A DNA stretch of 64,000 nt. Source: Shigella phage SSP1. The translations under genes were made by a program, and so were the position numbers. This document shows positions 4,113 through 63,538 of this stretch, piece after piece (within the stretch, counting starts at the first letter, position 1; each line of letters begins with the position of its first letter). Under the pieces are notes generated by a model. It had not been told where the DNA came from. It made no database searches and saw nothing but the letters and a program-made list of their open reading frames with translations. The stretch lies in the sequence record KY963424, one strand, 5' to 3'.

Positions 4113-4535
4113 ATGAGTACAGAAAATAGAGTAATTGATATTGTTGTTGATGAGAAAGTACCTTATGGTCTTGTCATGCAGTTTATGGATGTTGATGATA
4201 GTGTCTACCCTCCCTCTGAAATACCTGTTAACCTAACAGGTTACTCACTTCGTGGAACTATTAAAGCAAGTCTTGATGAAGATGCAGAAACTTTAGCTAC
4301 TTTTAAAACTCGTATAATCGATGCGGCTCAAGGAGCTGCTGCTATTAGCCTTAGTGTTGGAGATGTTAATAATATTGGTATTAAGGCATCCAAAGAGCGT
4401 GATAAATATAACCCAAGACAACGTTTTGCAGGCTATTACGATATTCTAATGACCCGCGATGTTATTGGTTCAGAAGTCAGTTCTTTCCGTATTATGGAAG
4501 GAAAGGTTTATGTGAGTGATGGGGTAACTCAATAA
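4113..4535 (+). CDS. Small tail protein, 140 aa, possibly collar (p132-like)
   Basis: Compact ORF between pb4-like and tail-fibre genes; same length as T5 p132 as recalled. Confidence 0.45.
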
Positions 4536-7500
4536 TGGCACTTAAAACTAAAATTATTGTACAGCAGATTCTGAACATAGATGACACTACAACTACTGCT
4601 AGTAAGTACCCTAAATATACAGTAGTTTTAGGAAATTCTATTAGCTCTATTACTGCTGGTGAATTAACTTCTGCTGTAGAAGCCTCCGCTGCTTCTGCGG
4701 CAGCAGCAAAAGGTTCTGAAATTGCTGCTAAAGATTCTGAGAATAAAGCAAAAGACTCCGAAATTATGGCGGGTATCTATGCAGATTCTTCCCAAACATC
4801 AGCTACTCAATCCGCAGCTTCAGCAGCAGAATCTGAGAAACAAGCTAGATTATCTCAGAAGAGTGCAGATGCTTCTGCTACATCAGCGGAAGAGTCTAAA
4901 GGATTTAGAGATTCTGCTGAACTAGCTGCTCAGAATGCTGAGAACAGTCGTAGACTTGCTGAACAAGCTAAGTCTGCTGCGCAAGCTGCTCAAACAGCGG
5001 CTGAAACTGCTAAGACTGGTGCTGAAACAGCAAAAGCTGGAGCAGATGCTGCTGCTACAACTGCTGGAGAACACGCTGCTGCTGCGAAACAATCAGAATT
5101 AAATGCTAAAACTTCTGAGACTAATGCTGCTAGCTCTGCTACAGAAGCGGGGGACAAAGCTATTGATGCTACTACTGAAGCAGATCGTGCTAAAGCTGAA
5201 GCAGATCGTGCAACTCAGATTGTTGATAGTAAACTTGATAAGGTAGATATTTCTGGTTTCATCAAAGTTTATAAGACTAAAGCAGAAGCCGATGCGGATG
5301 TTGGAAGTCGTGTACTAGGGGAGAAGATCCTAGTATGGAATCAAACTGATTCAAAATATGGGTGGTATAAGGTCACTGGTACTGCCGAAGCTCCTGTTCT
5401 AGAATTAGCAGAAATAGAGCAAAAGCTAGTTTCTATTAATAACGTTCGTGCAGATGACGCGGGTAACGTACAGATTACTCTTCCTGGTGGTAACCCCTCT
5501 TTATGGCTAGGTGAAGTTACTTGGTTCCCTTATGATAAAGATTCAGGTGTTGGCTATCCCGGTGTTCTGCCTGCCGATGGCCGTGAAGTCCTTCGTGTAG
5601 ACTACCCAGACACTTGGGAAGCCATCGAAGCTGGTCTAATTCCTTCTGTATCAGAAGCTGAATGGCAGGCTGGTGCAATACTCTACTTCTCCACTGGTGA
5701 TGGTTCTACAACCTTCCGTTTACCAGATATGATGCAAGGGCAGGCTTTCCGTGCACCAACTAAAGGTGAAGAAAATGCTGGTGCTATCAAAGAACAAATT
5801 CCTTATATCACCACTGTGAATGGAATTAGTCCTGCTGACGATACTGGAGCTATTAAGCTCCCTTACGTGGCGATGGTTAATGGAACTATTATACCAGATG
5901 AGAATGGAAACCTAGCACTAGGTAACGTTGTTACTAAGAATGTTTGGAATGGTACTGATGGAGAAGTTCTACTTCGTGGTGCTTTTGGTTTAGGTGGTGC
6001 TGGTATTGCGTTAAATGAACCTGATATAGTATCATTTTTTAAGGCTATGAGAGCTTTTGGCTCTGGGTATTATCGCAATGATACGGGATTTGATGGCTTG
6101 CCTGCATACGCTGCAGGTTTCTACTCCAGGGTAGCAGATACTAACTCGTTTATCTGCCCATCGTATGGTAGTGCTTCAGTATTTGTAGCTGCAATCAATG
6201 ATGCTGGTTTAGATAGTGAAAACCCTATTGTTCATACTAATATTCTTTATGGTACTGTTAATAAGCCAGATCTAAATGGTGATACTAATGGAGTTCTTAG
6301 TGTTGGTAAAGGCGGTACTGGAGCTACCACAGTTAGTGCTGCTAAGAAAGCTTTAGAAGTTGGTGGAGTTTTCTGTAATGATAGCCCAGCTGATGCTGCT
6401 TTCAACTCTCTCCAGAGCCCTGCTGGTATTCATGAGTTTAGACTAACTAATGAGGGGTTATGGGGTGTATGGAAGAAGGGGGAAGAAACGGTAGCTGCGT
6501 TGCCTATAGGCTCTGGTGGTACAGGAGCTACTGATAAAGTTGCTGCACGTGATAACTTTGAATTGGGGTATCATAATACTCCTAGATTTACTGGGGTAGA
6601 TCTATCTAATCCCGAAAGCATACCCTATAGTGGTATCCTTAATCTAAACAGGCTAAAGGAATCTGATCAAAATGTTATTACTCAGGGTAGAATCTATCAT
6701 GAGATGCAATCAGATTTGGCTAAAATTACCCTTCATATTAACAATACTTTAAATGGTGCAAACCGTTATATACAGTTTGTAGAAAATGGTGATTTAACTG
6801 GGCTACAGAATGTACATGCAGTTAACTACCTTGCAAGTGGTTATGTTACAGCCCAGGGATGGATCAAAGGCGGGGAAAAAATCTATATACAGCAAACAGG
6901 TGGGGGCAACAGGGAAATTAGTATGGCTGTACCTACTCCTAATAATGACCCTGGTGCTGGTTCTTGGGTTAACTTACTACAGGGTAACTGGTATAACGGT
7001 TACTGGCAAGTAGGTGGTATCCGTGGTAGTGGACCGGACTTAGACTGCCTCCGTATTGGAGTTAACAACTCTGGTACAGATTGGAAGGAATTCAATTTCT
7101 ACAACTCCTATGGTGGCCATATAACTGCTCCAAAAGGTTTTCGTGGTCAGTGTACTCAAGGATATTGGGGCTTAGAGTGGGATTACATGGGCGCCCCATT
7201 TCATGCAGAGTCTGTAGCAAATAATGATGGTGGTTGGTCTCCTATAGTATCGGGAGGTTCTTTATCCGCTGGTGGATATCATTTAAGAATAGGCCTTGGC
7301 TGTATCTCTAATGGTAACGCTGCATGGCCTGACGCTGCTCTTAAGTTAAATGGGGATGGCCAGTTCCACCGTTCATTCAACTTTAGAACAAACGGTAGCG
7401 TGTATACTTGGGGTAATGATCCTTGGGGAGGTAACTATGACTTTGCTATGAACCCTTCTTCAGATAGAGATATCAAAAGAGATATTAATTATGATGATGG

Positions 7501-50944: not shown

Positions 50945-51182
50945 ATATTCATAAATTAGGGAACAGCGAGCCGATTACGCTGAACTTGTCTTAATGTAAG
51001 ATGCGTCGAGCACTAAGATTCGTTGAATAGAGTCGGTGGGTTAGTTGTAAAACTAGTACACATGGGGCGGCAATCCCGGTTAGTGGCTAGAACGTGTAAA
51101 ATGAGGCGTCTGAAACCTCTCCCCTAAACTCTTCTCTAATTTATAAATAGTGGGGTGTGGAAATCACTTATGTAGTAACACT

Positions 51183-51254
51183 GCCGTCCTAGTATAATTG
51201 GTATTATCAAGCCGTAACTGGTGGAAGATGTAGGTTCGAATCCTACGGTCGGTA
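51183..51254 (+). ncRNA. tRNA-like element (canonical T-arm, 6/7 acceptor pairs, no recognisable anticodon arm)
   Basis: GTAGG-TTCGAAT-CCTAC T-arm; 5' GCCGTCC pairs with 3' GGTCGGT except one U-U; D- and anticodon regions do not fold canonically. Confidence 0.35.
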
Positions 51255-51754
51255 AGAACTGGATAACTGATGCTTTTAACGTAAAAGCTTCCGAGGTTAG
51301 TTGCGCACTGCCTAAACCACGCGGTAGTTGGTTCCAGACTAACCAACCAGTCTGCTGAATAGTTTTATTACGATTTAACTATGTCCAGGCTAAAGAAGAA
51401 CTTTAGAAGGTATTCTAGGATAGTGAAGTTCTTCCTCCATATCGGAGTAGTTTTTCAAGCTATCCACAAAGTGGGAAATGCTGACATGAGAGATGTCACT
51501 AATGGTGCACAATAGCACAGGTAATTCGCGATAATTCCTGTTGAGTAGCAGCAAAAGGCGGGAAGTCATGACCCCAAGCCTAACCGAGTCCTCAATATAC
51601 CGCAGGACATAACCACTAAGTCACCCTGACTTAAACTGGAAAATAATAGACGTTACCGTATTTTGTCTTGAAATACTTAATGAGTGAGACTTATGACTCT
51701 CCCGGTATCGTCTGTATTTTTAAGAGTTTTTACGAGAGTTCTTAAAAATACTTA

Positions 51755-51827
51755 AACGGGGTGTAGTCTAAGGGAGAGGCAGGAGTCTTCTAAATTCCTT
51801 TATGCAGGTTCGAATCCTGTATGAGCA
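51755..51827 (+). ncRNA. tRNA-like 3' element (T-arm GCAGG-TTCGAAT-CCTGT) at end of ORF-less region
   Basis: Canonical T-loop; no complementary 5' acceptor strand found by eye. Confidence 0.3.
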
Positions 51828-55289: not shown

Positions 55290-55378
55290 GGAAGAATAGC
55301 ATAACGGTATTGCAGCAGATTGCTAATCTGTCGGTTTGAAATATAGCCTTGTGGGTTCGATTCCCACTTCTTCCGCCA
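55290..55378 (+). tRNA. tRNA-Ser(GCT), type II
   Basis: Acceptor GGAAGAA/TTCTTCC, anticodon loop TTGCTAA, long variable arm, T-arm GTGGG-TTCGATT-CCCAC, encoded CCA. Confidence 0.8.
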
Positions 55379-55384
55379 GATTTT

Positions 55385-55462
55385 GGTTCTCAAGCTCATA
55401 TGGTATGAGCACCCGGCTCATAACCGGAAGGTACGTAGGTTCGAATCCTCGGGGAGCCACCA
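55385..55462 (+). tRNA. tRNA with CAT anticodon (Met or Ile2)
   Basis: Acceptor GGTTCTC/GGGAGCC (with G-U pairs), D-stem GCTC/GAGC, anticodon loop CTCATAA, T-loop TTCGAAT with imperfect stem, CCA encoded. Confidence 0.6.
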
Positions 55463-55480
55463 GTTAAATAGAGGTCACAA

Positions 55481-55669
55481 ATGGATCTATATATAGTTTA
55501 TGTTGTGTTTATTCAAGATAGAGAATACCCGGATGAATATAAAAAAGGATATAGGTTAGCCAGAGCTACCTCTGTAGCCCAAGCTATGGATAAAGTGGCA
55601 GATTATATGATTACGGTAGAAAACGTACACTATATCGACTACCTTGAAGCCTCAAAAGTAATTGACTAA
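55481..55669 (+). CDS. Hypothetical protein (62 aa)
   Basis: ORF immediately after tRNA; weak RBS. Confidence 0.4.
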   Translation: MDLYIVYVVFIQDREYPDEYKKGYRLARATSVAQAMDKVADYMITVENVHYIDYLEASKVID

Positions 55670-55678
55670 GGAGACTAT

Positions 55679-55864
55679 ATGTCTAAGTTTCAAGAACTCA
55701 AGCAAGAGCTAGAAGAATGTGCCTGCCCCGAATGTAGGGGAATTGGTGAAAGTTCTGATGCAGAAGCAGGAGATACTTTTTGCAATATCTGGGTTTGCTC
55801 AAATTGCAATGGTACAGGTATTAATCCTAACTGCGGTATTTCCCTAGATATTGAACGAGGATAA
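55679..55864 (+). CDS. Small Cys-rich (zinc-ribbon-like) protein (61 aa)
   Basis: CPECRG...CSNCNGTG two CxxC pairs; AGGAGACTATATG RBS. Confidence 0.45.
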   Translation: MSKFQELKQELEECACPECRGIGESSDAEAGDTFCNIWVCSNCNGTGINPNCGISLDIERG

Positions 55865-55965
55865 TACCTGTGAAACTAAAAGATTATTATATTGGTTGGT
55901 TTGTAGGATTAGTAGTAGGATTTTCACTAGGCTATAATATGTATCAACTAATAAACTGATTACAT

Positions 55966-56042
55966 GGGGGTGTAATCGAATTGGCATAGGTACTGGACTT
56001 AAAATTCAGGTTTTGTGGGTTCGAATCCCACCACCCCTACCA
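55966..56042 (+). tRNA. tRNA with anticodon TAA (Leu-type anticodon) but short variable arm
   Basis: Acceptor GGGGGTG/CACCCCT, anticodon arm CTGGA-CTTAAAA-TTCAG, T-arm GTGGG-TTCGAAT-CCCAC, CCA encoded; D-arm non-canonical. Confidence 0.55.
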
Positions 56043-56057
56043 AATTAAGGAAATAAG

Positions 56058-56225
56058 ATGTATAGACATCCACCTCCGCCAACACGTCGTTCTAGAGAAG
56101 TTATTCTCATGGAATTGACTAAAAACTTCAAGGCAACCCTTGAAGATAGAGATCTAGGCACGGATGAAGACATTGATTTTATTTGTAGACTATTAAAGAT
56201 GAAACTGGAGAAACAACATGGCTAA
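56058..56225 (+). CDS. Hypothetical small protein (55 aa)
   Basis: AAGGAAATAAGATG RBS right after tRNA; below ORF-track cut-off. Confidence 0.35.
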   Translation: MYRHPPPPTRRSREVILMELTKNFKATLEDRDLGTDEDIDFICRLLKMKLEKQHG

Positions 56226-56424
56226 TCCTGAAATTACCGCACAACGCTTCATGCTTAAAGGCATGATTGCTGAGGCAGGTATAACTCAAGAGGTTGCAGA
56301 TTTTCATAAGCAATTTCTTGATATTATAACTCTAGCTAAAGAGACTGGAGAAAAAGAGCACGGAGCAGCAATTATGGCTATATCTCTTATTAGTCTAGAC
56401 TTGGCTGAAGAATCTGGAGTTTAG
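56218..56424 (+). CDS. Hypothetical protein (68 aa)
   Basis: ORF overlapping previous stop. Confidence 0.4.
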   Translation: MANPEITAQRFMLKGMIAEAGITQEVADFHKQFLDIITLAKETGEKEHGAAIMAISLISLDLAEESGV

Positions 56425-56454
56425 CTCCTCCAAACAGAATTTTTAAAAATGTAC

Positions 56455-56484
56455 TTGCCTTTTGCTTTAAATTTCTGATATAAT
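56455..56484 (+). promoter_or_regulatory. T5-type early promoter (TTGCCT-18-TATAAT)
   Basis: AAAAATGTACTTGCCTTTTGCTTTAAATTTCTGATATAAT. Confidence 0.55.
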
Positions 56485-56514
56485 AGTTATATAAATTGAT
56501 GAAGGAGTTAACGA

Positions 56515-56790
56515 ATGCAAAATCGTGTTATAGCTGCTGGTATTGAAAGTGCAATCTGTAAATCCTGGGAAGGCTGGGAAGGTGAGATTGAATGGCTTTA
56601 TTTCTACGATGTAGAACTTCTGCCGGAAATTAAAGCTAAATGTGTTGAAGCTGGCATGGCTCCAGATGCAAAAGCTGATATTGATATTTCAATGTCTGAA
56701 CTTAAAGGTCGTGTAATCACTGTTAGTGATGAGGGTGAAGAAGTTTTTGAACTTCCGTTCTCCTTAACTGTCACTCCTAAGTTCGACTAG
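56515..56790 (+). CDS. Hypothetical acidic protein (91 aa)
   Basis: GAAGGAG RBS. Confidence 0.45.
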   Translation: MQNRVIAAGIESAICKSWEGWEGEIEWLYFYDVELLPEIKAKCVEAGMAPDAKADIDISMSELKGRVITVSDEGEEVFELPFSLTVTPKFD

Positions 56791-56826
56791 CTAATACAGC
56801 ATTGGGCAAGTTCTTTAAAATTTGAC

Positions 56827-56855
56827 TTGCTCAGTGCCTTAAAACTTGATATAAT
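56827..56855 (+). promoter_or_regulatory. T5-type early promoter (TTGCTC-17-TATAAT) upstream of tRNA-Tyr
   Basis: AAAATTTGACTTGCTCAGTGCCTTAAAACTTGATATAAT. Confidence 0.6.
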
Positions 56856-56979
56856 AGTTATCTAATTTGGAAACATATCTGAATGAGAAGTAATTAAGCG
56901 AGTTGCTTTGAGGGGTAAAGTCAGGAAATCCTGAAATATTCCACCTTGAGTTTAACCGACTTACTTTTCATTCAAATAT

Positions 56980-57060
56980 GAGGGATTGGCTCAGTGGCGA
57001 CGGCGCCTGGCTGTAGACCGGGTATATCACGCGGAGGTTCGAGTCCTCCATCCCTCACCA
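56980..57060 (+). tRNA. tRNA-Tyr(GTA)
   Basis: Acceptor GAGGGAT/ATCCCTC perfect, anticodon arm CCTGG-CTGTAGA-CCGGG, extended variable region, T-arm GGAGG-TTCGAGT-CCTCC, CCA encoded. Confidence 0.7.
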
Positions 57061-57078
57061 AATTACTAAGGAAGTAAT

Positions 57079-57624
57079 ATGCACAATAAGTTAATAAATG
57101 AGCTTCAAAAAAGACAAATAATAACAAAAACTAAGGAGTTTGATATAACTCCAGATTTAATAGTTGAATGTTCAAAAGTTTACTTAGAATTAAGTAACAC
57201 AAAAGCTAAGAAAGTCTCTTTAGGGGATCTTAGATATAACGTTAAACTATTGTGCTTATCATTAATTAAATTTAAACAGGAAAATAAACTTGCTATAAAA
57301 GAAGGCTTCATATATTTTATAGCAAATAAGGCCTGGCCCAATTATTTTAAGATTGGTATGTCAGCTAACCCAAAGAAACGCTTAGCGAACTATCAAACAT
57401 ATAGCCCCTTTAGGGATTATACAATGCTACACTGGTCTTTCTGGTTTGATAGAAAGGAAGGTGAAAAGTTTGTCCATAGTCTCTATCATGATAGAGATCA
57501 TGAATGGGTTAAGTTGCCTCAAAGAAAACTAAATAAAATATTTGAACAAATTAATAAACTTTCTGGTTTGGAACATTTAGTACAGAAAGTTAATAGAGAA
57601 ATAGTTAATGCACCTATCGTCTAA
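57079..57624 (+). CDS. T5orf172/GIY-YIG-like domain protein (mobile-element-type)
   Basis: GFIYFIANKAWPNYFKIGMSANPKKRLANYQTYSP resembles the T5orf172 (GIY-YIG-related) signature; AT-rich codon usage; stop overlaps tRNA-Glu 5' end. Confidence 0.55.
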   Translation: MHNKLINELQKRQIITKTKEFDITPDLIVECSKVYLELSNTKAKKVSLGDLRYNVKLLCLSLIKFKQENKLAIKEGFIYFIANKAWPNYFKIGMSANPKKRLANYQTYSPFRDYTMLHWSFWFDRKEGEKFVHSLYHDRDHEWVKLPQRKLNKIFEQINKLSGLEHLVQKVNREIVNAPIV

Positions 57625-57684
57625 TGGTTAGGACATCAGGATTTCAATCTGAGAATCGGAGTTCAATTCTCCGTGGGTGTACCA
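57610..57684 (+). tRNA. tRNA-Glu(TTC)
   Basis: Acceptor GCACCTA/TGGGTGT (two G-U), D-stem GTC/GAC, anticodon arm TCAGG-ATTTCAA-TCTGA, T-arm CGGAG-TTCAATT-CTCCG, CCA encoded. Confidence 0.75.
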
Positions 57685-57692
57685 GTTTCTGC

Positions 57693-57769
57693 ATTCCTAG
57701 AGTGTTACTGGACAGCATGTCGGTCTCCAAAACCGTACGGTCTAGGTTCGAGTCCTAGTAGGTTTGCCA
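57693..57769 (+). tRNA. tRNA-Trp(CCA)-like (acceptor stem with two U-U mismatches)
   Basis: Anticodon arm CGGT-CTCCAAA-ACCG, D-stem GTGT/GCAT, T-arm CTAGG-TTCGAGT-CCTAG, CCA encoded; acceptor ATTCCTA/TAGGTTT pairs only 5 of 7. Confidence 0.5.
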
Positions 57770-57775
57770 AAATTT

Positions 57776-57850
57776 GCACCTTTAGCTGAGATGGATTAGC
57801 GCTTGCCTGAAGAGCTTGAGAGGTTCGTTCGATACGAACAGGGTGCACCA
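57776..57850 (+). tRNA. tRNA-Phe(GAA)-like
   Basis: Acceptor GCACCTT/AGGGTGC, D-stem GCTG/TAGC, anticodon loop CTGAAGA (stem has two U-U), T-arm GTTCG-TTCGATA-CGAAC, CCA encoded. Confidence 0.6.
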
Positions 57851-57852
57851 AT

Positions 57853-58140
57853 TTGAATGAGCTGCTGATGCATCCTGAAAACTTCTTTATTTACTGCGCG
57901 GATAAGTCGCTGAAACGTAGAATTAACAAAGTCTATCATTATCGTGCTAGTCAACAGCCTTATGTATATGCTTTTGACGGTGATCACATTCCACTAGAAC
58001 AATTATCTTGTGATTACATGATATTGAAGAACTTTGACGAGACGAAGATCTCAAGCGTTCATAATCGACAGAATCCATTAACGTGGAAATATAAGAAGAA
58101 AAAGAAAGGCATCAAATTCTTAAAAAATGTAGTTGCTTAG
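57853..58140 (+). CDS. Hypothetical protein (95 aa)
   Basis: ORF following tRNA block; 3' end overlaps a promoter; weak evidence. Confidence 0.35.
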   Translation: MNELLMHPENFFIYCADKSLKRRINKVYHYRASQQPYVYAFDGDHIPLEQLSCDYMILKNFDETKISSVHNRQNPLTWKYKKKKKGIKFLKNVVA

Positions 58141-58161
58141 TTTCCAAAAGTTCTGTATAAT
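58133..58161 (+). promoter_or_regulatory. T5-type early promoter (TTGCTT-17-TATAAT)
   Basis: AAAAATGTAGTTGCTTAGTTTCCAAAAGTTCTGTATAAT + ACATAAATTGAACTGGAG. Confidence 0.6.
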
Positions 58162-58190
58162 AATTACATAAATTGAACTGGAGAAGCAAC

Positions 58191-58415
58191 ATGACAGAAC
58201 AAGAATTGAATGAACGTAAGCTGGTAATGCTTCGCTTACTAAATATTTTCTCTGGTATGGACGGTGGAATTGACTTTGTTCATCTACGTTCTTTCGTAGA
58301 AGAAGCCGAAGGCGAATCTATCACTAAAATCCTTAAACACATGGGATTACTTTTAGATGCTGCTAATGTGGCTACTGAATATAAACTAGAAGATCTACCG
58401 AAGCGTGTTAAATGA
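58191..58415 (+). CDS. Hypothetical protein (74 aa)
   Basis: Start MTEQEL with GGAGAAGCAACATG RBS. Confidence 0.45.
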   Translation: MTEQELNERKLVMLRLLNIFSGMDGGIDFVHLRSFVEEAEGESITKILKHMGLLLDAANVATEYKLEDLPKRVK

Positions 58416-58603
58416 GAAAGTTAGTTAAATTTAAGTGTTGTGGTTCTGAACATATTTTCACACATCTTCGTGAATTTAAAATGTGTGATTGTGGTAAATC
58501 AGGCTATGACTCAGGAGATGGGTTCTACACCCGTACTCTAGGGAACTTCAATGATCTAGAATTTGAAGATCTCGAAAAACAAGATAAATCGACCGTTGGC
58601 TGA
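58412..58603 (+). CDS. Small Cys-containing protein (63 aa)
   Basis: Translationally coupled; CCGSEH...CDCGKSG; stop overlaps tRNA-Cys 5' end. Confidence 0.4.
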   Translation: MRKLVKFKCCGSEHIFTHLREFKMCDCGKSGYDSGDGFYTRTLGNFNDLEFEDLEKQDKSTVG

Positions 58604-58665
58604 ATGGCTTAGGCGAAGGATTGCAAATCCTTTTTATGTGAGTTCAAATCTCATGCGGTCGTCCA
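58590..58665 (+). tRNA. tRNA-Cys(GCA)
   Basis: Acceptor CGACCGT/GCGGTCG, anticodon arm AAGGA-TTGCAAA-TCCTT, T-arm GTGAG-TTCAAAT-CTCAT, CCA encoded. Confidence 0.75.
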
Positions 58666-58667
58666 AT

Positions 58668-58808
58668 TTGCTGAAAGAATTGTTAAATCAATTCAGGCAC
58701 GCGTAGGAACACTGTCTCCGCAATTGAAAGATGAGGCACGGTTTGGAGAGGTATGCCGCTACACGCTACGGTGCTAACTCCGTCTAGGTGAAAATCCTAG
58801 TCAGCAAT
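58668..58808 (+). ncRNA. 141-nt tRNA-like structured RNA (perfect 7-bp terminal stem, T-arm-positioned hairpin, long insertion)
   Basis: 5' TTGCTGA pairs perfectly with 3' TCAGCAA; hairpin CTAGG-TGAAAAT-CCTAG immediately precedes the 3' strand; no ORF. Confidence 0.35.
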
Positions 58809-58817
58809 ATAAATTTA

Positions 58818-58900
58818 GGGTCGTTAGCCAAGCGGTTTGGCGGTGGACTGTTAATCCATGTCGAAAGACAACGTAGGTTCGAATCCTACACGGCCCGCCA
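58818..58900 (+). tRNA. tRNA with Asn-type anticodon arm (GTT) but extended 13-nt variable arm
   Basis: Acceptor GGGTCGT/ACGGCCC, D-stem GCC/GGC, anticodon arm GTGGA-CTGTTAA-TCCAT (close to the E. coli tRNA-Asn arm as recalled), variable GTCGAAAGACAAC, T-arm GTAGG-TTCGAAT-CCTAC, CCA encoded. Confidence 0.6.
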
Positions 58901-59002
58901 AATTCTGTGTAGAGTTAAGTAAACCGGTAGCCAACCAGCTATCATTGCTGATATCGAATTCAGCCACAGATACCATTTTCATTAATAACTGAGGAAACAA
59001 GC

Positions 59003-59188
59003 ATGTCCAAGAATGTAATTGCACAGTTAGAAGTTCATCGTGATAGCACTATCAACAATATTGAAGTTGAGAAGAAATACATAGAAGAACTTAAACACGA
59101 TATACTAGTAAGTCTCAATCGTCTTAATGTACGAAAAGAGTTTCTTAAAGAACTTAATGCAGCTATTGAAAAACTCAAAGCTGAGTAA
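59003..59188 (+). CDS. Hypothetical coiled-coil protein (61 aa)
   Basis: GAGGAAACAAGCATG RBS. Confidence 0.45.
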   Translation: MSKNVIAQLEVHRDSTINNIEVEKKYIEELKHDILVSLNRLNVRKEFLKELNAAIEKLKAE

Positions 59189-59195
59189 ATGAATT

Positions 59196-59777
59196 ATGCA
59201 CGGAATATTTTTACCTATTCCTATGTTTGATGAATATCTGGTAAGTCTAGATGGGTTAGTGTTCAGTATTAAATCAAATAAAATACTAACCCCAATAACT
59301 AGTAATTATGGATATGTATCTGTACGCCTACATCATAACGGTAGGCAAAGAAATACTGGTATACATAGAATCATAGCATGTGCCTTTAAAAGGTTACCTA
59401 GTTTAGACTCTGTACTAGAGGTTGATCATATTGATACAGATATCACCTATTGGGGATTAAATAATCTACAAGTCCTTACTAAAGAACAGCATTTAGAAAA
59501 AACCCTGAAAGATAAGGGCTATAATAAACTAATACATAATAAACAGTGTAGTATATGTGGTGAACCTATATCACTGAAAGCAGATAAGTGTCAAAAATGC
59601 TCATCACATAAACTGAAAGATCCATCTATTACTAAAGAAATAATAGAATCTACTGTAAAAGAGTTAGGATGGTCTGGTGCTGGAAGAAGATTATCTTATT
59701 CTGATAACGGGTTAAGAAAACGTTATAAAGCATTAGGTGGTGATCCAAAAGAATTAAAAAAGTTAAAGGTACTATAG
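59196..59777 (+). CDS. HNH homing endonuclease (NUMOD4-like N-terminus + HNH)
   Basis: IHRIIACAF...EVDHIDTDITYWGLNNLQVLTKEQHLEKT HNH core; paralog of 62914..63474 with shared C-terminal SGAGRRLSYSDNGLRKRYKALGG; stop overlaps tRNA-Asp. Confidence 0.7.
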   Translation: MHGIFLPIPMFDEYLVSLDGLVFSIKSNKILTPITSNYGYVSVRLHHNGRQRNTGIHRIIACAFKRLPSLDSVLEVDHIDTDITYWGLNNLQVLTKEQHLEKTLKDKGYNKLIHNKQCSICGEPISLKADKCQKCSSHKLKDPSITKEIIESTVKELGWSGAGRRLSYSDNGLRKRYKALGGDPKELKKLKVL

Positions 59778-59842
59778 TCTAACGGTTAGGATACTCCCCT
59801 GTCACGGGAGAGGTAGGGTTTCGATTACCCTTAGTACCGCCA
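59768..59842 (+). tRNA. tRNA-Asp(GTC)
   Basis: Acceptor GGTACTA/TAGTACC perfect, anticodon arm CTCCC-CTGTCAC-GGGAG, T-arm AGGGT-TTCGATT-ACCCT, CCA encoded. Confidence 0.8.
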
Positions 59843-59868
59843 AACTAAACTAGCACGAGAAATATGCT

Positions 59869-60216
59869 ATGATTAATGCTAAAGAAGAATTGTTACTTGC
59901 CCTAAAGAATATTAATTCTGAAGTTAAGTGTATTAAGATAGAATTCGGTTATTATGGGGACAAAGAAGTTTGGGTATTACCCATAGGTTATACAGAAAAA
60001 GATATTGAAGATTTTCTAAATAATCTAGACTTTAAATATGATTCTGGTTTCGGTGGACAATTGCTTTATGGTAACGTATGGTTTACTGATGGAACTTGGT
60101 TAGAACGTGGTGAATATGATGGTTCTGAATGGTGGGAATATAAGACTACACCGGCAATCCCAGAAGAATGCCGAACAATTAATGGTGAAGTAGATAATAC
60201 TTTACGGTTAAACTAA
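59869..60216 (+). CDS. Hypothetical protein (115 aa)
   Basis: ORF with Trp/Gly-rich C-terminus. Confidence 0.5.
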   Translation: MINAKEELLLALKNINSEVKCIKIEFGYYGDKEVWVLPIGYTEKDIEDFLNNLDFKYDSGFGGQLLYGNVWFTDGTWLERGEYDGSEWWEYKTTPAIPEECRTINGEVDNTLRLN

Positions 60217-60220
60217 TAAA

Positions 60221-60329
60221 ATTTCAGTGCAGAACACGGAGCTAGCAATTCGGAAGTGCTGACTCATGATAAGCTGCCTATGTACTTGCTAAGCGGTCGT
60301 GTCCAAGACTCGGACTCTTGCACTGAAAA
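60221..60329 (+). ncRNA. Structured RNA candidate closed by about 11-bp terminal stem
   Basis: TTTCAGTGCAG (60222-60232) is complementary to CTTGCACTGAAA (60317-60328); internal hairpin GTCC-AAGACTC-GGAC; no ORF. Confidence 0.35.
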
Positions 60330-60338
60330 CAATCAAAC

Positions 60339-60459
60339 ATTCTAGCGTGGTTGATGGAGAAACCAGCTTGGCGAGGGCAGAAGCTCGTTCGATTCGAGTG
60401 AAAGAATGGTTCTCGTAAGTCCGCACAAGTGATAACAGGTTCGAGTCCTGTCTAGAATG
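60339..60459 (+). ncRNA. 121-nt tRNA-like RNA (perfect acceptor stem + canonical T-arm, oversized body)
   Basis: 5' ATTCTAG pairs with 3' CTAGAAT; T-arm ACAGG-TTCGAGT-CCTGT; second internal T-arm-like hairpin GCTCG-TTCGATT-CGAGT; no CCA encoded. Confidence 0.4.
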
Positions 60460-60469
60460 ACACTATAAA

Positions 60470-60592
60470 GTTTACTTATTATGTAGGTTCCGATAGATCG
60501 GCGGGTCTATTCTGGCATTTAAGAGAGGTCTCGCAAACTTCTTTGTCAGCCGTGGGGTTCATAGCCTCCAGGTGGCCTACACAATAAGTAAA
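60470..60592 (+). ncRNA. Structured RNA candidate closed by 14-bp terminal stem
   Basis: ACTTATTATGTAGG (60474-60487) pairs with CCTACACAATAAGT (60576-60589) with one mismatch; internal palindromes; no ORF. Confidence 0.35.
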
Positions 60593-60608
60593 TTTATTAA
60601 AAATTCAT

Positions 60609-60638
60609 TTGCTATTCTGCTTTATTATCTGTATAATA
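60609..60638 (+). promoter_or_regulatory. T5-type early promoter (TTGCTA-18-TATAAT)
   Basis: AAAAATTCATTTGCTATTCTGCTTTATTATCTGTATAAT. Confidence 0.6.
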
Positions 60639-60669
60639 TATTTTATAAAGTGAAGAGAAGGAAAGCTAA

Positions 60670-60867
60670 ATGAAGAAAGTTTTATTACTATCTGTATTCC
60701 TACTTACTGGTTGTTTTAAATTTGACTCAACCATTAATAAAGAGTATGAATTTGCTAAAAATTTCTGTGGCGGAGAGAGTAATATAAAGAATTTCTACAT
60801 ATATAGTACAATTCCTAGTACCGTTTATTGTGTAGACGGACGAATTATTAATATTCCTCCACAATAA
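60670..60867 (+). CDS. Small lipoprotein (65 aa)
   Basis: MKKVLLLSVFLLTGC lipoprotein signal peptide with lipobox LTGC; GAGAAGGAAAGCTAAATG RBS. Confidence 0.55.
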   Translation: MKKVLLLSVFLLTGCFKFDSTINKEYEFAKNFCGGESNIKNFYIYSTIPSTVYCVDGRIINIPPQ

Positions 60868-60876
60868 AAGAATTAA

Positions 60877-60952
60877 CAGTGCGTAGCGCAGTTGGTAGCG
60901 TGGGAGCCTTGGATGCTTCGGGTCGCAGGTTCGAGTCCTGCCGCACTGACCA
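60877..60952 (+). tRNA. tRNA-Pro(TGG)
   Basis: Acceptor CAGTGCG/CGCACTG perfect, D-stem GCGC/GCGT, anticodon arm GGAGC-CTTGGAT-GCTTC, T-arm GCAGG-TTCGAGT-CCTGC, CCA encoded. Confidence 0.8.
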
Positions 60953-60958
60953 AACAAT

Positions 60959-61036
60959 TGCGGGTTAGATCTCTGGTAGAGATCACTAGTCTCATAAGCT
61001 AGAAAGAGGTAGGTTCGATTCCTGCACCCGCTTCCA
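60959..61036 (+). tRNA. tRNA with CAT anticodon (second Met/Ile2-type), unpaired 1-72
   Basis: D-stem GATC/GATC, anticodon arm CTAGT-CTCATAA-GCTAG, T-arm GTAGG-TTCGATT-CCTGC, CCA encoded; acceptor TGCGGGT/ACCCGCT with T-T at 1-72. Confidence 0.6.
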
Positions 61037-61056
61037 TTTTAATAGAGGATTTCGAA

Positions 61057-61224
61057 ATGAAAGTATTTCGATTAGTAGTAAGTGACAAACGTTCAGGTAA
61101 AAATACCTCAAAATCCTTACTCGCTCATTATGGTAAAAATTGGGATGAAGTAATGTCAGAGTTTAATACTAATCACCCTTACTTGAAAGTTCACTCTATT
61201 AAAGAAGTATATAATGGTTACTAA
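61057..61224 (+). CDS. Hypothetical small protein (55 aa)
   Basis: TAGAGGATTTCGAAATG RBS; below ORF-track cut-off. Confidence 0.35.
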   Translation: MKVFRLVVSDKRSGKNTSKSLLAHYGKNWDEVMSEFNTNHPYLKVHSIKEVYNGY

Positions 61225-61225
61225 T

Positions 61226-61304
61226 AGATCGCTAGCTCAATAGGTTTAGTAGCATCCGACTTTTAATCGGAAGGTTCTGGGTTCGAGTCCCAGGCGATCT
61301 ACCA
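61226..61304 (+). tRNA. tRNA-Lys(TTT)
   Basis: Acceptor AGATCGC/GCGATCT perfect, anticodon arm TCCGA-CTTTTAA-TCGGA, T-arm CTGGG-TTCGAGT-CCCAG, CCA encoded. Confidence 0.8.
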
Positions 61305-61323
61305 ATTTCAAGAAAAATGTACT

Positions 61324-61351
61324 TGCTTGATGCTTAATTTCTTGTTATAAT
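61324..61351 (+). promoter_or_regulatory. T5-type early promoter (TTGCTT-16-TATAAT)
   Basis: AAAAATGTACTTGCTTGATGCTTAATTTCTTGTTATAAT + ATATAAATTGATGGGGAG. Confidence 0.55.
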
Positions 61352-61589
61352 ATTTATATAAATTGATGGGGAGAAATCCTCATCATAGTTCACTAAGGTA
61401 TTAGCTCGACCTAGGACTGGCTGCCAAAAAGCACGATCCCTACGATTCGGGAGAAGTTCTAGATTAGTCCACTAGATTCAGTGGCAACTGAGTAGTGTAT
61501 CGGGTTTGCGAGATGACGCGGTTCCTTCCGCTTGAAGCGAAGGTGCTGTAGTTACGCCGAGCTAATAGCCTTAGTAAACTAAAGAATTT

Positions 61590-61663
61590 GGGGATATAGT
61601 TTAATGGTAGAACATCTGCTTTGCACGCAGAAGACGAGGGTTCAACTCCCTCTTTCTCCACCA
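61590..61663 (+). tRNA. tRNA-Ala(TGC)
   Basis: Acceptor GGGGATA/TTTCTCC (one mismatch), anticodon arm TCTGC-TTTGCAC-GCAGA, T-arm GAGGG-TTCAACT-CCCTC, CCA encoded. Confidence 0.7.
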
Positions 61664-61668
61664 AATTT

Positions 61669-61753
61669 GGGGCTATGCTGGAACTGGTAGACAATACGGC
61701 CTTAGATTCCGTAGCTTAAATGCGTGGGAGTTCGAGTCTCCCTAGCCCCACCA
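61669..61753 (+). tRNA. tRNA-Leu(TAG), type II
   Basis: Acceptor GGGGCTA/TAGCCCC perfect, D-loop with GGTAGAC, anticodon loop CTTAGAT, 13-nt variable arm, T-arm GGGAG-TTCGAGT-CTCCC, CCA encoded. Confidence 0.75.
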
Positions 61754-61865
61754 AATTTGATGGTCAGAGTAAAATAAACCTACTATCTCGGTTGAGCTGT
61801 TTTAATGGGTTCGAATCCCAGCGAGGCGTAACTGCCTGGTGTGATAGAGGCATCATCTTATTATT

Positions 61866-61956
61866 GGAAGAGCAAATCGAATTGGCGACGAAAACCGCTT
61901 GGAAAGTGGCTGACTGGTAAAACGGCTTGAGAGTTCAAATCTCTCCTCTTCCGCCA
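61866..61956 (+). tRNA. tRNA-Ser(GGA), type II
   Basis: Acceptor GGAAGAG/CTCTTCC perfect, anticodon loop TTGGAAA, long variable arm, T-arm GAGAG-TTCAAAT-CTCTC, CCA encoded; D region irregular. Confidence 0.6.
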
Positions 61957-61978
61957 AACAATTTATATGGTAGGTCAA

Positions 61979-62073
61979 TCCAACGGCTGGCGCTGGACTC
62001 CGACTTGAAATCGGTTGATCGTAGTGATACGGTGTAAGGGTTCGATCCCCTTACCTACCTCCAAATCTTGAAG
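61979..62073 (+). tRNA. tRNA-Ser(TGA), type II
   Basis: Acceptor GGTAGGT/ACCTACC perfect, anticodon arm CCGA-CTTGAAA-TCGG, long variable arm, T-arm AAGGG-TTCGATC-CCCTT, CCA encoded. Confidence 0.7.
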
Positions 62074-62439
62074 TATGCCGGAATCGGTAGACGGGGCTGC
62101 CTAAAAGGTTTATAGGGAACATCCACTCCCTGCAATATACCTCATAAAGCGGCTGAGATAAATGGTCTATCTCGTGAAGGTTCAAGTCCTTCTACTTCTT
62201 GATATATCAATGGCTCAAAGTGTAACGGTGCTATTTGATGCGCTTGGAAAGACTTCCCCGACATGCGTTCGGGAGTAAGCTACTAAGGCTAGAGTAGAAG
62301 AGTTTCGGAGAGCCGCCACAATTGAAAATTCGTACTCGTCTTGAGCTGCGTGCAATAGGAGATAACTTGATTAGTATTCTAGAACATGCTAATTGAGGAA
62401 GGTTTCGCTAACCCTGCGAGTTTTCAATTGTGGCTATAT
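62074..62439 (+). ncRNA. ORF-less segment with degenerate tRNA-like pieces and a 14-bp long-range stem
   Basis: T-arm GAAGG-TTCAAGT-CCTTC without matching acceptor; ...GAGAGCC-G-CCA 3'-end-like motif at 62308-62318; GCCACAATTGAAAA (62314-62327) is the exact reverse complement of TTTTCAATTGTGGC (62431-62444). Confidence 0.3.
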
Positions 62440-62516
62440 CATAATTGGTTAATGATCCTGATTGTGAATCAGGCCTATGTGGATTCGAATTCCACTAGCC
62501 ACCCCAAATTAACTTA
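62440..62516 (+). tRNA. tRNA-His(GTG)
   Basis: Acceptor GTGGCTA/TAGCCAC perfect, D-stem TCAT/ATGA, anticodon arm CCTGA-TTGTGAA-TCAGG, T-arm GTGGA-TTCGAAT-TCCAC, CCA encoded. Confidence 0.8.
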
Positions 62517-62531
62517 AATAGGAAATAAAAT

Positions 62532-62732
62532 ATGGCTGATTTCTGCAAACAATGCTCCATTGATATGTGGGGCAGAGATACTGGTGATCTTTCTGGTTTG
62601 ATTACAGAAGCTGAAGTTAAAGAAGGCTACGGTGCTGTTGTGATTTGCGAAGGATGCGGAGTTATTCGAGTAGATCATGAAGGCAAACGTTTAGAAGATC
62701 CAGAACCAATCGCCACGGTTCCTGTAGAATAA
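62532..62732 (+). CDS. Small zinc-ribbon-like protein (66 aa)
   Basis: CKQC...CEGC two CxxC pairs; AATAGGAAATAAAATATG RBS. Confidence 0.45.
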   Translation: MADFCKQCSIDMWGRDTGDLSGLITEAEVKEGYGAVVICEGCGVIRVDHEGKRLEDPEPIATVPVE

Positions 62733-62739
62733 AAATTAT

Positions 62740-62815
62740 TGGGATGTAGATCAATTGGCAGATCGTCGGCCTCTGACTCCGAAGGTTCCACGTTCGATCC
62801 GTGGCATCCCAGCCA
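62740..62815 (+). tRNA. tRNA-Gln(CTG)
   Basis: Acceptor TGGGATG/CATCCCA perfect, D-stem GATC/GATC, anticodon loop CTCTGAC, T-arm CCACG-TTCGATC-CGTGG, CCA encoded. Confidence 0.7.
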
Positions 62816-62821
62816 AATAAT

Positions 62822-62897
62822 TGGAGAGTAGTGTAACGGTTAGCACAACGGCCTTTGACTCCGTTAATGGTAGGTTCGATTCCTCCTTCTCCAGCCA
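62822..62897 (+). tRNA. tRNA-Gln(TTG)
   Basis: Acceptor TGGAGAG/TTCTCCA, D-stem GTG/CAC, anticodon loop CTTTGAC, T-loop TTCGATT, CCA encoded; near-duplicate of the CTG isoacceptor. Confidence 0.7.
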
Positions 62898-62913
62898 AAA
62901 TAAATAAAGTATT

Positions 62914-63474
62914 ATGAAAATAATTCCTGAATTTCCAAACTATAGTATAACTGAGGATGGTAAGGTATGGTCTAAAAATATTAATGCATTTTTATCTCCA
63001 TATGTTAATAACTCAGGATACCCATGCTATAAACTCCACAAGAATGGTATTCAGTACACACAGTCTATCCATAGATTACTTGCTAGAGTGTATAAGGGTT
63101 TACCTTCACTAGACTCTGAACTAGAGGTAGATCATAAAGATACCGATCCTTCTAATTATAGTTTAGATAATATACAAGTTCTAAGTAAAGAAGAACACTT
63201 GAAGAAAACCCTTCAAGATAGGAAACAGTTGCCTTATAATACTATTTGCCCACTTTGCTCAGGCTACAAAGATCCTGGTGCTTCTAAGTGTAAGAAATGT
63301 TCTTCTTTATCACAAGTAAAAGATAAATCTGTTACCGTAGAACAGATCGAATACTGGGTTAAAAACTATTCTTGGGTAAGAGCTGGAAAGGAATTAGGTT
63401 ATTCAGATAGTGGATTACGTAAACGTTATAAAGCTCTTACTGGTAAAGACCCTAAACAAATAAAATGCGGTTAG
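62914..63474 (+). CDS. HNH homing endonuclease (NUMOD4-like N-terminus + HNH)
   Basis: EFPNYSITEDGKVWS; IHRLLARVY...EVDHKDTDPSNYSLDNIQVLSKEEHLKKT; paralog of 59196..59777; stop overlaps tRNA-Gly. Confidence 0.7.
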   Translation: MKIIPEFPNYSITEDGKVWSKNINAFLSPYVNNSGYPCYKLHKNGIQYTQSIHRLLARVYKGLPSLDSELEVDHKDTDPSNYSLDNIQVLSKEEHLKKTLQDRKQLPYNTICPLCSGYKDPGASKCKKCSSLSQVKDKSVTVEQIEYWVKNYSWVRAGKELGYSDSGLRKRYKALTGKDPKQIKCG

Positions 63475-63538
63475 CCTCATGGTGGGGACTTAGTCTTCCA
63501 AACTAATGGAGAGGGTTCGATTCCCTCTAGCCGCTCCA
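63467..63538 (+). tRNA. tRNA-Gly(TCC)
   Basis: Acceptor GCGGTTA/TAGCCGC, anticodon arm TTAGT-CTTCCAA-ACTAA, T-arm GAGGG-TTCGATT-CCCTC, CCA encoded; short D-arm. Confidence 0.7.

Follow-up and report, generated by a model that had tools for sequence, protein, structure and literature searches.

The array of about 20 tRNA genes that Shigella phage SSP1 (sequence record KY963424) carries on the + strand, at 55-63.5 kb of the 64,000-nucleotide (nt) stretch of DNA analysed here (the window), also holds a tRNA-like RNA gene of 141 nt at 58668-58808 (+), its discriminator-like U at 58808 included. We put at roughly 65% the probability that this element is a gene in its own right for a structured tRNA-like RNA that takes no part in decoding, would be excised by tRNA-type processing and would have its central arm as the working part. 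What the analysis shows is that the element exists and is conserved in two phage families, that compensatory substitutions hold its shape, that it always lies in register in tRNA arrays and that it is gained and lost as a discrete module. It is most likely a natural "tRNA-scaffolded" RNA, in which an acceptor/T-arm minihelix and a hairpin at the D-arm position are kept and about 80 nt replace the anticodon arm.

The gene lies between tRNA-Cys and tRNA-Asn(GUU), as had been proposed in an initial annotation made from the letters alone. It begins 2 nt past the CCA of tRNA-Cys, which ends at 58665, and 9 nt separate its last base from tRNA-Asn, which starts at 58818. CCA is encoded in all 19 tRNAs of the array at 55290-63538, whereas no CCA is encoded 3' of the element, where the next bases are ATAAATTTA (ATA). 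The segment 58500-59000 of the window is 99.6% identical to Phage NBSal005 and has hundreds of matches among the Salmonella and Escherichia Demerecviridae, placing SSP1 with the T5-like phages. By blastn, the element occurs in 218 phage records, about 211 of them T5-like (Tequintavirus, Epseptimavirus, Sugarlandvirus and Yersinia phiR2-01) and seven from Klebsiella myoviruses of the genus Mydovirus (Vequintavirinae), whose copies show approximately 76% identity to it. None of the 218 records names it in its annotation, and no description of it was found in searches of the literature, which also yielded nothing specific on the tRNA-like RNAs of T5.

Fold, conserved core and departure from tRNA

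The initial annotation had pointed to a perfect terminal helix of 7 base pairs (bp) and to a hairpin, CTAGG-TGAAAAT-CCTAG, in the place of a T-arm. Both can be read directly: TTGCTGA at 58668-58674 faces TCAGCAA at 58801-58807 (the 3' strand starts at 58801, and not at 58802 as first given), and the hairpin occupies 58784-58800 with zero bases between it and the 3' strand of the helix. Taken alone, this helix-plus-hairpin motif is weak evidence. A scan for a perfect 7-bp helix with an abutting hairpin of 5 bp and a 7-nt loop, spanning 55-200 nt, gives about two matches per shuffled window, although the unshuffled window has 15 motifs, every one of them on the + strand and 13 inside the tRNA array. 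The folding z-score of the single sequence against shuffles is likewise modest (-2.4). It is the helices kept by compensatory changes in the comparative data that place the element well beyond chance. The parts of the fold are as follows.

58668-58674 / 58801-58807 (+): P1, acceptor-like helix of 7 bp; both-side changes in four of seven pairs, 99% of cells paired
58677-58682 / 58689-58694 (+): P2, hairpin at the D-arm position (58677-58694) with a 6-nt loop; both-side changes in five of six pairs, 100% paired
58696-58700 / 58771-58775 (+): P3a, base of the long central arm in the place of the anticodon arm; two pairs changed on both sides, 100% paired
58713-58718 / 58733-58738 (+): P4, apical hairpin (58713-58738); three pairs changed on both sides, with several wobble-to-Watson-Crick changes
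58745-58781 (+): near-invariant core GGAGAGGUAUGCCGCUACACGCUACGGUGCUAACUCC, almost unchanged in both phage families
58784-58788 / 58796-58800 (+): T-arm-like hairpin CUAGG/UGAAAAU/CCUAG (58784-58800, loop 58789-58795), abutting P1; one pair changed on both sides (A-U to U-A), 100% paired

A covariance model built from five T5-like sequences found a single copy in the window, with 179 bits, and scored the Mydovirus copies at about 98 bits. Covariation was evaluated with a 42-pair model on 16 distinct sequences, using slid partners and 500 shuffles as controls. In this model 97.6% of the cells are paired and 16 pairs have changed on both sides, against 0-3 in the slid controls, and none of the 500 shuffles reached the observed values. 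The comparison supports a predicted architecture of acceptor-like helix, D-arm-like hairpin, long central arm and T-arm-like hairpin. Because many of its G-U pairs, including the invariant pair between element positions 29 and 108, would be A-C on the other strand, the RNA is assigned to the + strand. Single substitutions among the T5-like phages are compatible with wobble pairing, with one exception.

Two A residues separate P1 from P2, whose loop, UUAAAU and invariant among the copies, is not of the G18G19 type. In Mydovirus the both-side changes of P3a are C-G to G-C and A-U to U-G. The loop of P4 is purine-rich with UGAAAG (UGAGAG in Mydovirus), and Mydovirus has its own 6-bp hairpin at the place of P4, where the register of the alignment is uncertain. 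The P3 arm is the minimum free energy (MFE) structure in Mydovirus, and forcing it in the window costs only 1.2 kcal/mol. The alternative pairing of 58696-58699 with 58754-58757 (element positions 29-32 with 87-90), which is the MFE choice for the single sequence, was rejected, as two of its four pairs are broken in Mydovirus. For the core, two models were retained. In model A, 58702-58706 is paired to 58766-58770, and a pseudoknot joins 58745-58748 to 58778-58781 (element positions 78-81 with 111-114). In model C, 58703-58706 is paired to 58759-58762, and 58768-58771 forms a pseudoknotted hairpin with 58780-58783 (element positions 101-104 with 113-116). Reading the core as an 11-nt GNRA receptor or the UGAAAAU loop as boxB-like was dismissed, the two together being either unsupported or contrary to the covariation.

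The features shared with canonical tRNAs are the 7-bp acceptor helix and the abutting 5-bp T-stem with its 7-nt loop, and both helices covary. As the hairpin at the D-arm position covaries as well and the gene is in register within tRNA arrays, the description as a "tRNA-like RNA" in the initial annotation holds. An anticodon stem-loop (5 bp, 7-nt loop, U33) is absent, with an arm of about 80 nt in its place. The T-loop had been judged non-canonical, and it is UGAAAAU in all copies, with G and A at the positions of psi55 and C56 in tRNA. Neither G18G19 in the D-loop nor U54-psi55-C56-R57-A58 in the T-loop is present in any copy, and an encoded CCA is also absent from the copies of Mydovirus and of phage Spivey. 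The invariant non-canonical T-loop and the P2 loop argue against the elbow chemistry of a normal tRNA and against decoding.

No family of Rfam 15 (YrlA/Y RNA, yjdF, ribozymes and phage motifs included) matches the element at its gathering threshold, nor at E<=10 on a 361-nt stretch, and the tRNA clan (RF00005, family threshold 29 bits) has no match over 58668-58808 even at E<=10. ARAGORN, run in its tRNA, transfer-messenger RNA (tmRNA) and intron-tolerant modes, makes no call there at default thresholds. Its relaxed calls are inconsistent, giving Pyl/CUA with a 63-nt intron in the window, and Cys/ACA with a 50-nt intron and other boundaries in Mydovirus. Besides the lack of detection as tmRNA by ARAGORN and Rfam, the pair equivalent to 3-70 is G-C or A-U, and not the G3-U70 of tmRNA. 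No open reading frame (ORF) of at least 20 amino acids lies within the element.

Relatives, contexts and mobility

All copies are on the strand of the tRNAs and start 2-3 nt past the CCA of a tRNA, in four different contexts: Cys-element-Asn in the window, Cys-Asn-element in phiR2-01, Asn-element-Cys in Spivey and Ser(GCU)-element-Ser(UGA) in Mydovirus. Insertion polymorphism at the locus had been suggested as a comparative check, and it is evident. Loci without the element do not hold a normal tRNA followed by spacer. T5 (L005, NC_005859, 7007-7525, - strand) has in the slot an ORF with a MUG113/T5orf172 domain, T5.069, together with a different allele of tRNA-Asn, and in Proteus phage Mydo one tRNA-Ser gene follows directly on the other, leaving a clean empty site. 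The presence of a different gene or of a clean empty site identifies the element as a discrete module of gain and loss. Taken with its distribution, the comparison indicates a discrete, dispensable module that is exchanged horizontally.

Searches of IMG/VR, JGI metagenomes and GTDB genomes with patterns of the core and the T-arm returned, as genuine copies, only T5-like, Sugarlandvirus-like or Mydovirus ones, and none from bacteria; E. coli genomes and plasmids had no match either. Four of the 16 matches in a scan of IMG/VR with a 17-mer of the core were discarded as unrelated coding sequence.

Several other differences were observed at these loci. The tRNA-Ser slot that is empty in Mydo and holds the element in seven phages carries an unrelated 80-nt insert in Klebsiella phage VLCpiM5b (L095, approximately 516-597), and in phage DP (L096, 540-986) the tRNA-Ser pair is followed closely by a gene for an HNH endonuclease, which overlaps the second tRNA-Ser. 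Directly after the CCA of tRNA-Cys in T5, TTACTAAAGGA resembles the first 11 nt of the form of the element found in phiR2-01 and Spivey; this stretch may be a replacement scar or a remnant of the element. Some T5-like phages also differ by about 115 nt in length over 58500-59000, as seen between Escherichia phage IME178 (L026, 713-1000) and window positions 58412-58603, a difference located in the small ORF (DUF7695-like, below threshold) that precedes tRNA-Cys, and not in the element.

Proposed processing and function, and competing explanations

The following features surround the element and bear on its expression.

58113-58187 (+): homologue of promoter P14b, 98.7% identical to the T5 feature "promoter P14b" (early promoter)
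58590-58665 (+): tRNA-Cys(GCA) with encoded CCA (ARAGORN and Rfam)
58818-58900 (+): tRNA-Asn(GUU) with encoded CCA (ARAGORN and Rfam)
58903-58975 (+): homologue of T5 "RNA3" (annotated as a putative tRNA-like RNA), 98.6% identical to T5 misc_RNA rna3, in the same transcription unit as the element

The P14b homologue, whose promoter activity is presumed from the T5 annotation, is the likely start of a unit comprising two small ORFs, tRNA-Cys, the element, tRNA-Asn and RNA3. No terminator-like site was found on the + strand in the approximately 480 nt between it and the element. Since there is a P14b homologue upstream and no + strand terminator before it, the element should belong to the P14b precursor and would be co-transcribed with the flanking tRNAs from an early promoter of this type, in the order P14b-ORF-ORF-tRNA-Cys-element-tRNA-Asn-RNA3. 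An acceptor/T-arm minihelix is an established determinant for RNase P and for the 3' maturation of tRNAs. As the 12-bp coaxial stack of acceptor and T-arm is such a determinant for RNase P, this enzyme would be expected to cut between 58667 and 58668, leaving a 2-nt trailer on tRNA-Cys. Host enzymes would then trim the 3' end to about 58808, with CCA addition possible. The tRNA-like frame would in this way provide correct excision and stability, and the conserved central arm would be the working part. The strongest constraint is in this arm, which argues for a function in trans, probably protein binding, rather than for a processing spacer. Most probably the arm would bind a host or phage protein, the RNA acting as a tRNA-shaped ligand, sponge or decoy with no role in decoding; the initial annotation had already listed a decoy substrate among its suggestions, and such a role is possible.

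A number of points weigh against the reading of the element as an independent, processed RNA gene. The processing and stability of its RNA are argued by analogy, and its first pair (U1-A) and its base at -1 are not the optimum for RNase P. Among T5-like records with a match to the flanks, about half, T5 included, are without the element (467 flank against 218 element records), and the copy in Salmonella phage KKP_3822 (L022, 1509-1638) has several small deletions and has lost the 3' strand of the T-arm, being either a decaying copy or the product of sequencing errors. Given these absences and the one degraded copy, the element is dispensable. The tRNA regions of the T5-like phages and of Mydovirus have no protein gene in common, so no partner is indicated. 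The covarying pairs derive from only about three independent clades, which means one or two events per pair, and the alignment used for them was fitted to the fold model. Finally, models A and C of the core are both 95-100% compatible with all sequences, which vary too little to choose between them.

Of the other explanations, the one that deserves most attention holds that the element acts in cis only, as a tRNA-shaped spacer that gives RNase P and RNase E entry points for an ordered processing of the precursor, the excised RNA being a by-product. Its start always 2-3 nt past the CCA of the preceding tRNA would fit such a role, as would the lack of an encoded CCA, the dispensability in many relatives and the lack of a partner gene. 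A processing signal, however, needs just the acceptor/T-arm minihelix, yet it is the central arm of about 80 nt that is conserved most (nearly 100% across the two families). Moreover, the majority of tRNAs in the array mature with no element of this kind beside them, and Mydo has its two tRNA-Ser genes back to back without the element. We consider this explanation rather unlikely. Far less probable is an element acting at the level of DNA, either a miniature mobile element with 7-bp terminal inverted repeats or the target or scar of a homing endonuclease. The presence/absence polymorphism with exact boundaries could be so explained, all the more as HNH and GIY-YIG-type genes abound in the tRNA arrays of these phages and T5 has its MUG113/T5orf172 ORF in the very slot of the element. 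The internal helices, however, covary, with G-U pairs that fit the + strand transcript only, the orientation is always that of the tRNAs, and no target-site duplication is visible at the junction between Mydo and VLCpiM5a. Gene conversion driven by an endonuclease would in any case be compatible with the element being an RNA gene.

The suggestion of a tRNA carrying an insertion, that is, a decoding or otherwise unusual tRNA that functions once the extra 65-70 nt or so are removed, is improbable in the extreme. The 7-bp acceptor helix, the correct linkers of 2 nt and 1 nt and the geometry of the T-arm agree with it, and at an 80% score threshold ARAGORN reports in the window an "intron-containing" tRNA with exactly the ends of the element. 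This call disappears at default settings with introns allowed, and the relaxed calls differ between the window and Mydovirus; the residual "anticodon loop" is without U33, Rfam has no tRNA match at E<=10, the conserved nucleotides of the D- and T-loops are lacking, and no CCA is encoded, in contrast to the neighbouring tRNAs. Group I is, to our knowledge, the only type of tRNA intron in bacteria and phages. The supposed insert falls short of the length of a group I intron and is the most conserved part of the element. A micropeptide of 12 residues has hardly any claim either. The ORF from the ATG at 58753 to the TGA at 58789-58791, with GGAG upstream at 58745-58748, is kept in Mydovirus together with the GGAG, the start codon and the stop codon inside the T-loop, as read from the alignment, but of the four codons that differ between the clades three change the amino acid (V to G, P to L and R to W), and RNA pairing accounts for all four differences; in addition, GGAG and ATG are only 4 nt apart, and the start is inside predicted structure. 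That the element is a pseudo-tRNA in decay, or neutral spacer in which hairpins arose by chance, is equally hard to credit and is already contradicted by the data. This reading would account for the composite motif expected about twice per shuffled window, for the modest z-score and for the degraded copy in KKP_3822, but not for sixteen covarying pairs, nor for the identity of about 76% with invariant blocks between unrelated phage families, nor for the same boundaries in four contexts and at a clean empty site. The additional 80 nt or so are conserved and partly covarying, and not decaying as the term pseudo-tRNA, also put forward initially, would imply.

Similar RNAs in T5, T4 and the window, and their significance

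Eight "stable RNAs" are annotated in the T5 record, and for two of them the entry reads "tRNA-like stable RNA with unknown functions"; the window has a homologue of each of the eight. Those in the array, the RNA3 homologue listed above among them, are the following.

60338-60462 (+): T5 RNA2 homologue (match to T5 rna2)
62067-62211 (+): T5 RNA1 homologue (match to T5 rna1)
58903-58975, 60338-60583, 61399-61570 and 62067-62428 (+): homologues of T5 rna3, rna2, rnaIV, rna2H, rna1, rnaI and rnaIII

As these homologues lie elsewhere in the window, the element is additional to them. T5 RNA2 and RNA1 (misc_RNA rna2 and rna1 of NC_005859) resemble it in lying within the tRNA array, on the strand of the tRNAs, and in their size of 125-144 nt. 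The fold of RNA2 has the same architecture, namely an acceptor-like terminal helix, a hairpin at the D position, a long central arm and an abutting T-arm. Its T-loop, however, is the canonical UUCGAAU and not UGAAAAU, and the element is absent from T5 itself and also present in Mydovirus. In the tRNA region of T5 (L005) there is no covariance-model match at E<=10 and no blastn match, so that no homology to RNA1 or RNA2 is detectable. Indeed, none of T5 rna1, rna2, rna3, rnaI, rnaIII, rnaIV, rna2H and rnaX, nor T4 rnaC and rnaD, shows homology to it, a seemingly high global identity to rna1 being an artefact of cheap gaps.

RNAC (species 1, 139 nt) and RNAD (species 2, 119 nt) of T4 are also small RNAs of similar size beside phage tRNA genes, and RNAC ends in a canonical T-arm beside its terminal helix. 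They come from the T4 tRNA region and their role is still without assignment (PMC3014915; PMC9697503), and their expression has been validated by Northern blot (PMC9697503). They differ from the element in belonging to another phage family and in having experimentally shown expression, the element being known from its sequence. The tRNA region of T4 (L004) gave no covariance-model match at E<=10 and no sequence similarity to RNAC or RNAD. Like the phage tRNA-like stable RNAs as a functional kind, the element lies in a tRNA array, is co-oriented with it, has a length within 100-170 nt and is not a decoding tRNA; by its structure, it has a terminal helix and T-arm able to direct tRNA-type end processing. 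Homology in sequence or structure to a described member (T5 RNA1/RNA2, T4 RNAC/RNAD) was not found. From these comparisons, the element would be an additional, undescribed phage tRNA-like stable RNA, a grouping by functional kind and not by homology.

Among more distant parallels is the engineered tRNA scaffold of Ponchon and Dardel, reportedly used to express a cargo RNA stably in E. coli: the cargo takes the place of the anticodon arm of a tRNA whose acceptor, T- and D-arms remain, and the whole is matured and protected by the cell in the manner of a tRNA. The element has the same design, but this is an analogy of design only, since the element is natural and has a non-canonical elbow without equivalents of G18G19 and psi55C56. 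The tRNA-like domain of tmRNA similarly combines an acceptor helix and a T-arm with a long helix that leads to other domains and replaces the anticodon arm. The element, however, lacks G3-U70, the encoded CCA and a tag frame with a resume codon, and is far shorter. YrlA, a bacterial Y RNA bound by Ro60/Rsr as a tRNA mimic, is a non-coding RNA of about 100-150 nt with partial tRNA mimicry, and some copies are phage-encoded. Its topology differs, as Ro binds the helix formed by its 5' and 3' ends and the part that mimics tRNA lies distally, and no Rfam match was obtained at E<=10.

As the T5 stable-RNA homologues illustrate, much of the "tRNA region" of the window is RNA other than tRNA. Further candidates were noticed in it. 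A candidate structured RNA of about 105 nt at 60223-60327 (+), just upstream of the RNA2 homologue, combines a terminal helix of 10 bp with a T-arm-like hairpin that abuts it; it has no ARAGORN or Rfam call, and the matching interval of T5 is also without annotation. Two tRNA-Ser-like genes at 61866-61955 and 61969-62062 (+), with GGA and UGA anticodon loops and encoded CCA, are placed as tRNA-Ser2 and tRNA-Ser1 of T5. Both were missed by ARAGORN and by Rfam at its gathering threshold, and the second scores 38 bits against tRNA-Sec (cut-off 47). Outside the array, a weak Rfam tRNA match at 51183-51254 (+; 35.5 bits), without encoded CCA or ARAGORN call, lies in the homologue (51127-51756) of T5 "RNAX", a 719-nt "stable RNA with unknown functions".

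In metagenomic viral tRNA arrays, two "mini" tRNA-like elements of about 59-65 nt were found, at 4184-4248 (-) of contig L027 and at approximately 2308-2366 (+) of contig L077, directly following tRNA-Gly and tRNA-Leu, respectively. As in the element, they have a 7-bp acceptor helix and a T-arm of the type GU + NNNGG-UGAAAAU-CCNNN; the T-arm of the L027 copy, which encodes CCA, is identical to that of Mydovirus at 20 of 20 positions. To judge by these sequences, the mini elements hint at a wider class with a common T-arm. On the same contig L027, a 244-nt gap between tRNA-Tyr and tRNA-Thr (4408-4651, -), which is not AT-rich, could be a further non-coding RNA within an array.

The tRNA arrays of phages are now known to act against host defences that cleave tRNAs. 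For the RNAs of these arrays that are not tRNAs (T4 RNAC and RNAD, T5 RNA1 and RNA2, and others), we know of no function assigned since the 1970s, and current phage annotation pipelines miss such RNA genes altogether. The element adds to them a well-delimited family with a fold supported by covariation, in which transfer between two phage families, an unusual T-arm and natural knock-out variants are notable. Its near-invariant core of about 40 nt has come through a transfer between a family of siphoviruses and a genus of myoviruses. Phages that are otherwise nearly identical differ naturally in whether they carry the element, some of them E. coli K-12 phages tractable in the laboratory, such as the carrier IrisVonRoten (MZ501075), and the combination of covariation, invariant core and natural variants makes a clean genetic and biochemical test of such RNAs feasible. 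More speculatively, and in our view doubtful as it stands, the element could be a stand-alone, horizontally mobile "RNA cassette", with the tRNA frame securing excision and stability in whatever enterobacterial host it enters and the invariant central arm acting in trans as a decoy or sponge. Possible targets could be a host immune effector or toxin directed at tRNA, or a host protein that processes or binds tRNA. If this were true, the GG-UGAAAAU-CC T-arm, present also in the two mini elements of unrelated viral contigs, would mark a site of protein recognition, and the element would be the first functionally assigned member of a 50-year-old class of phage tRNA-like stable RNAs.

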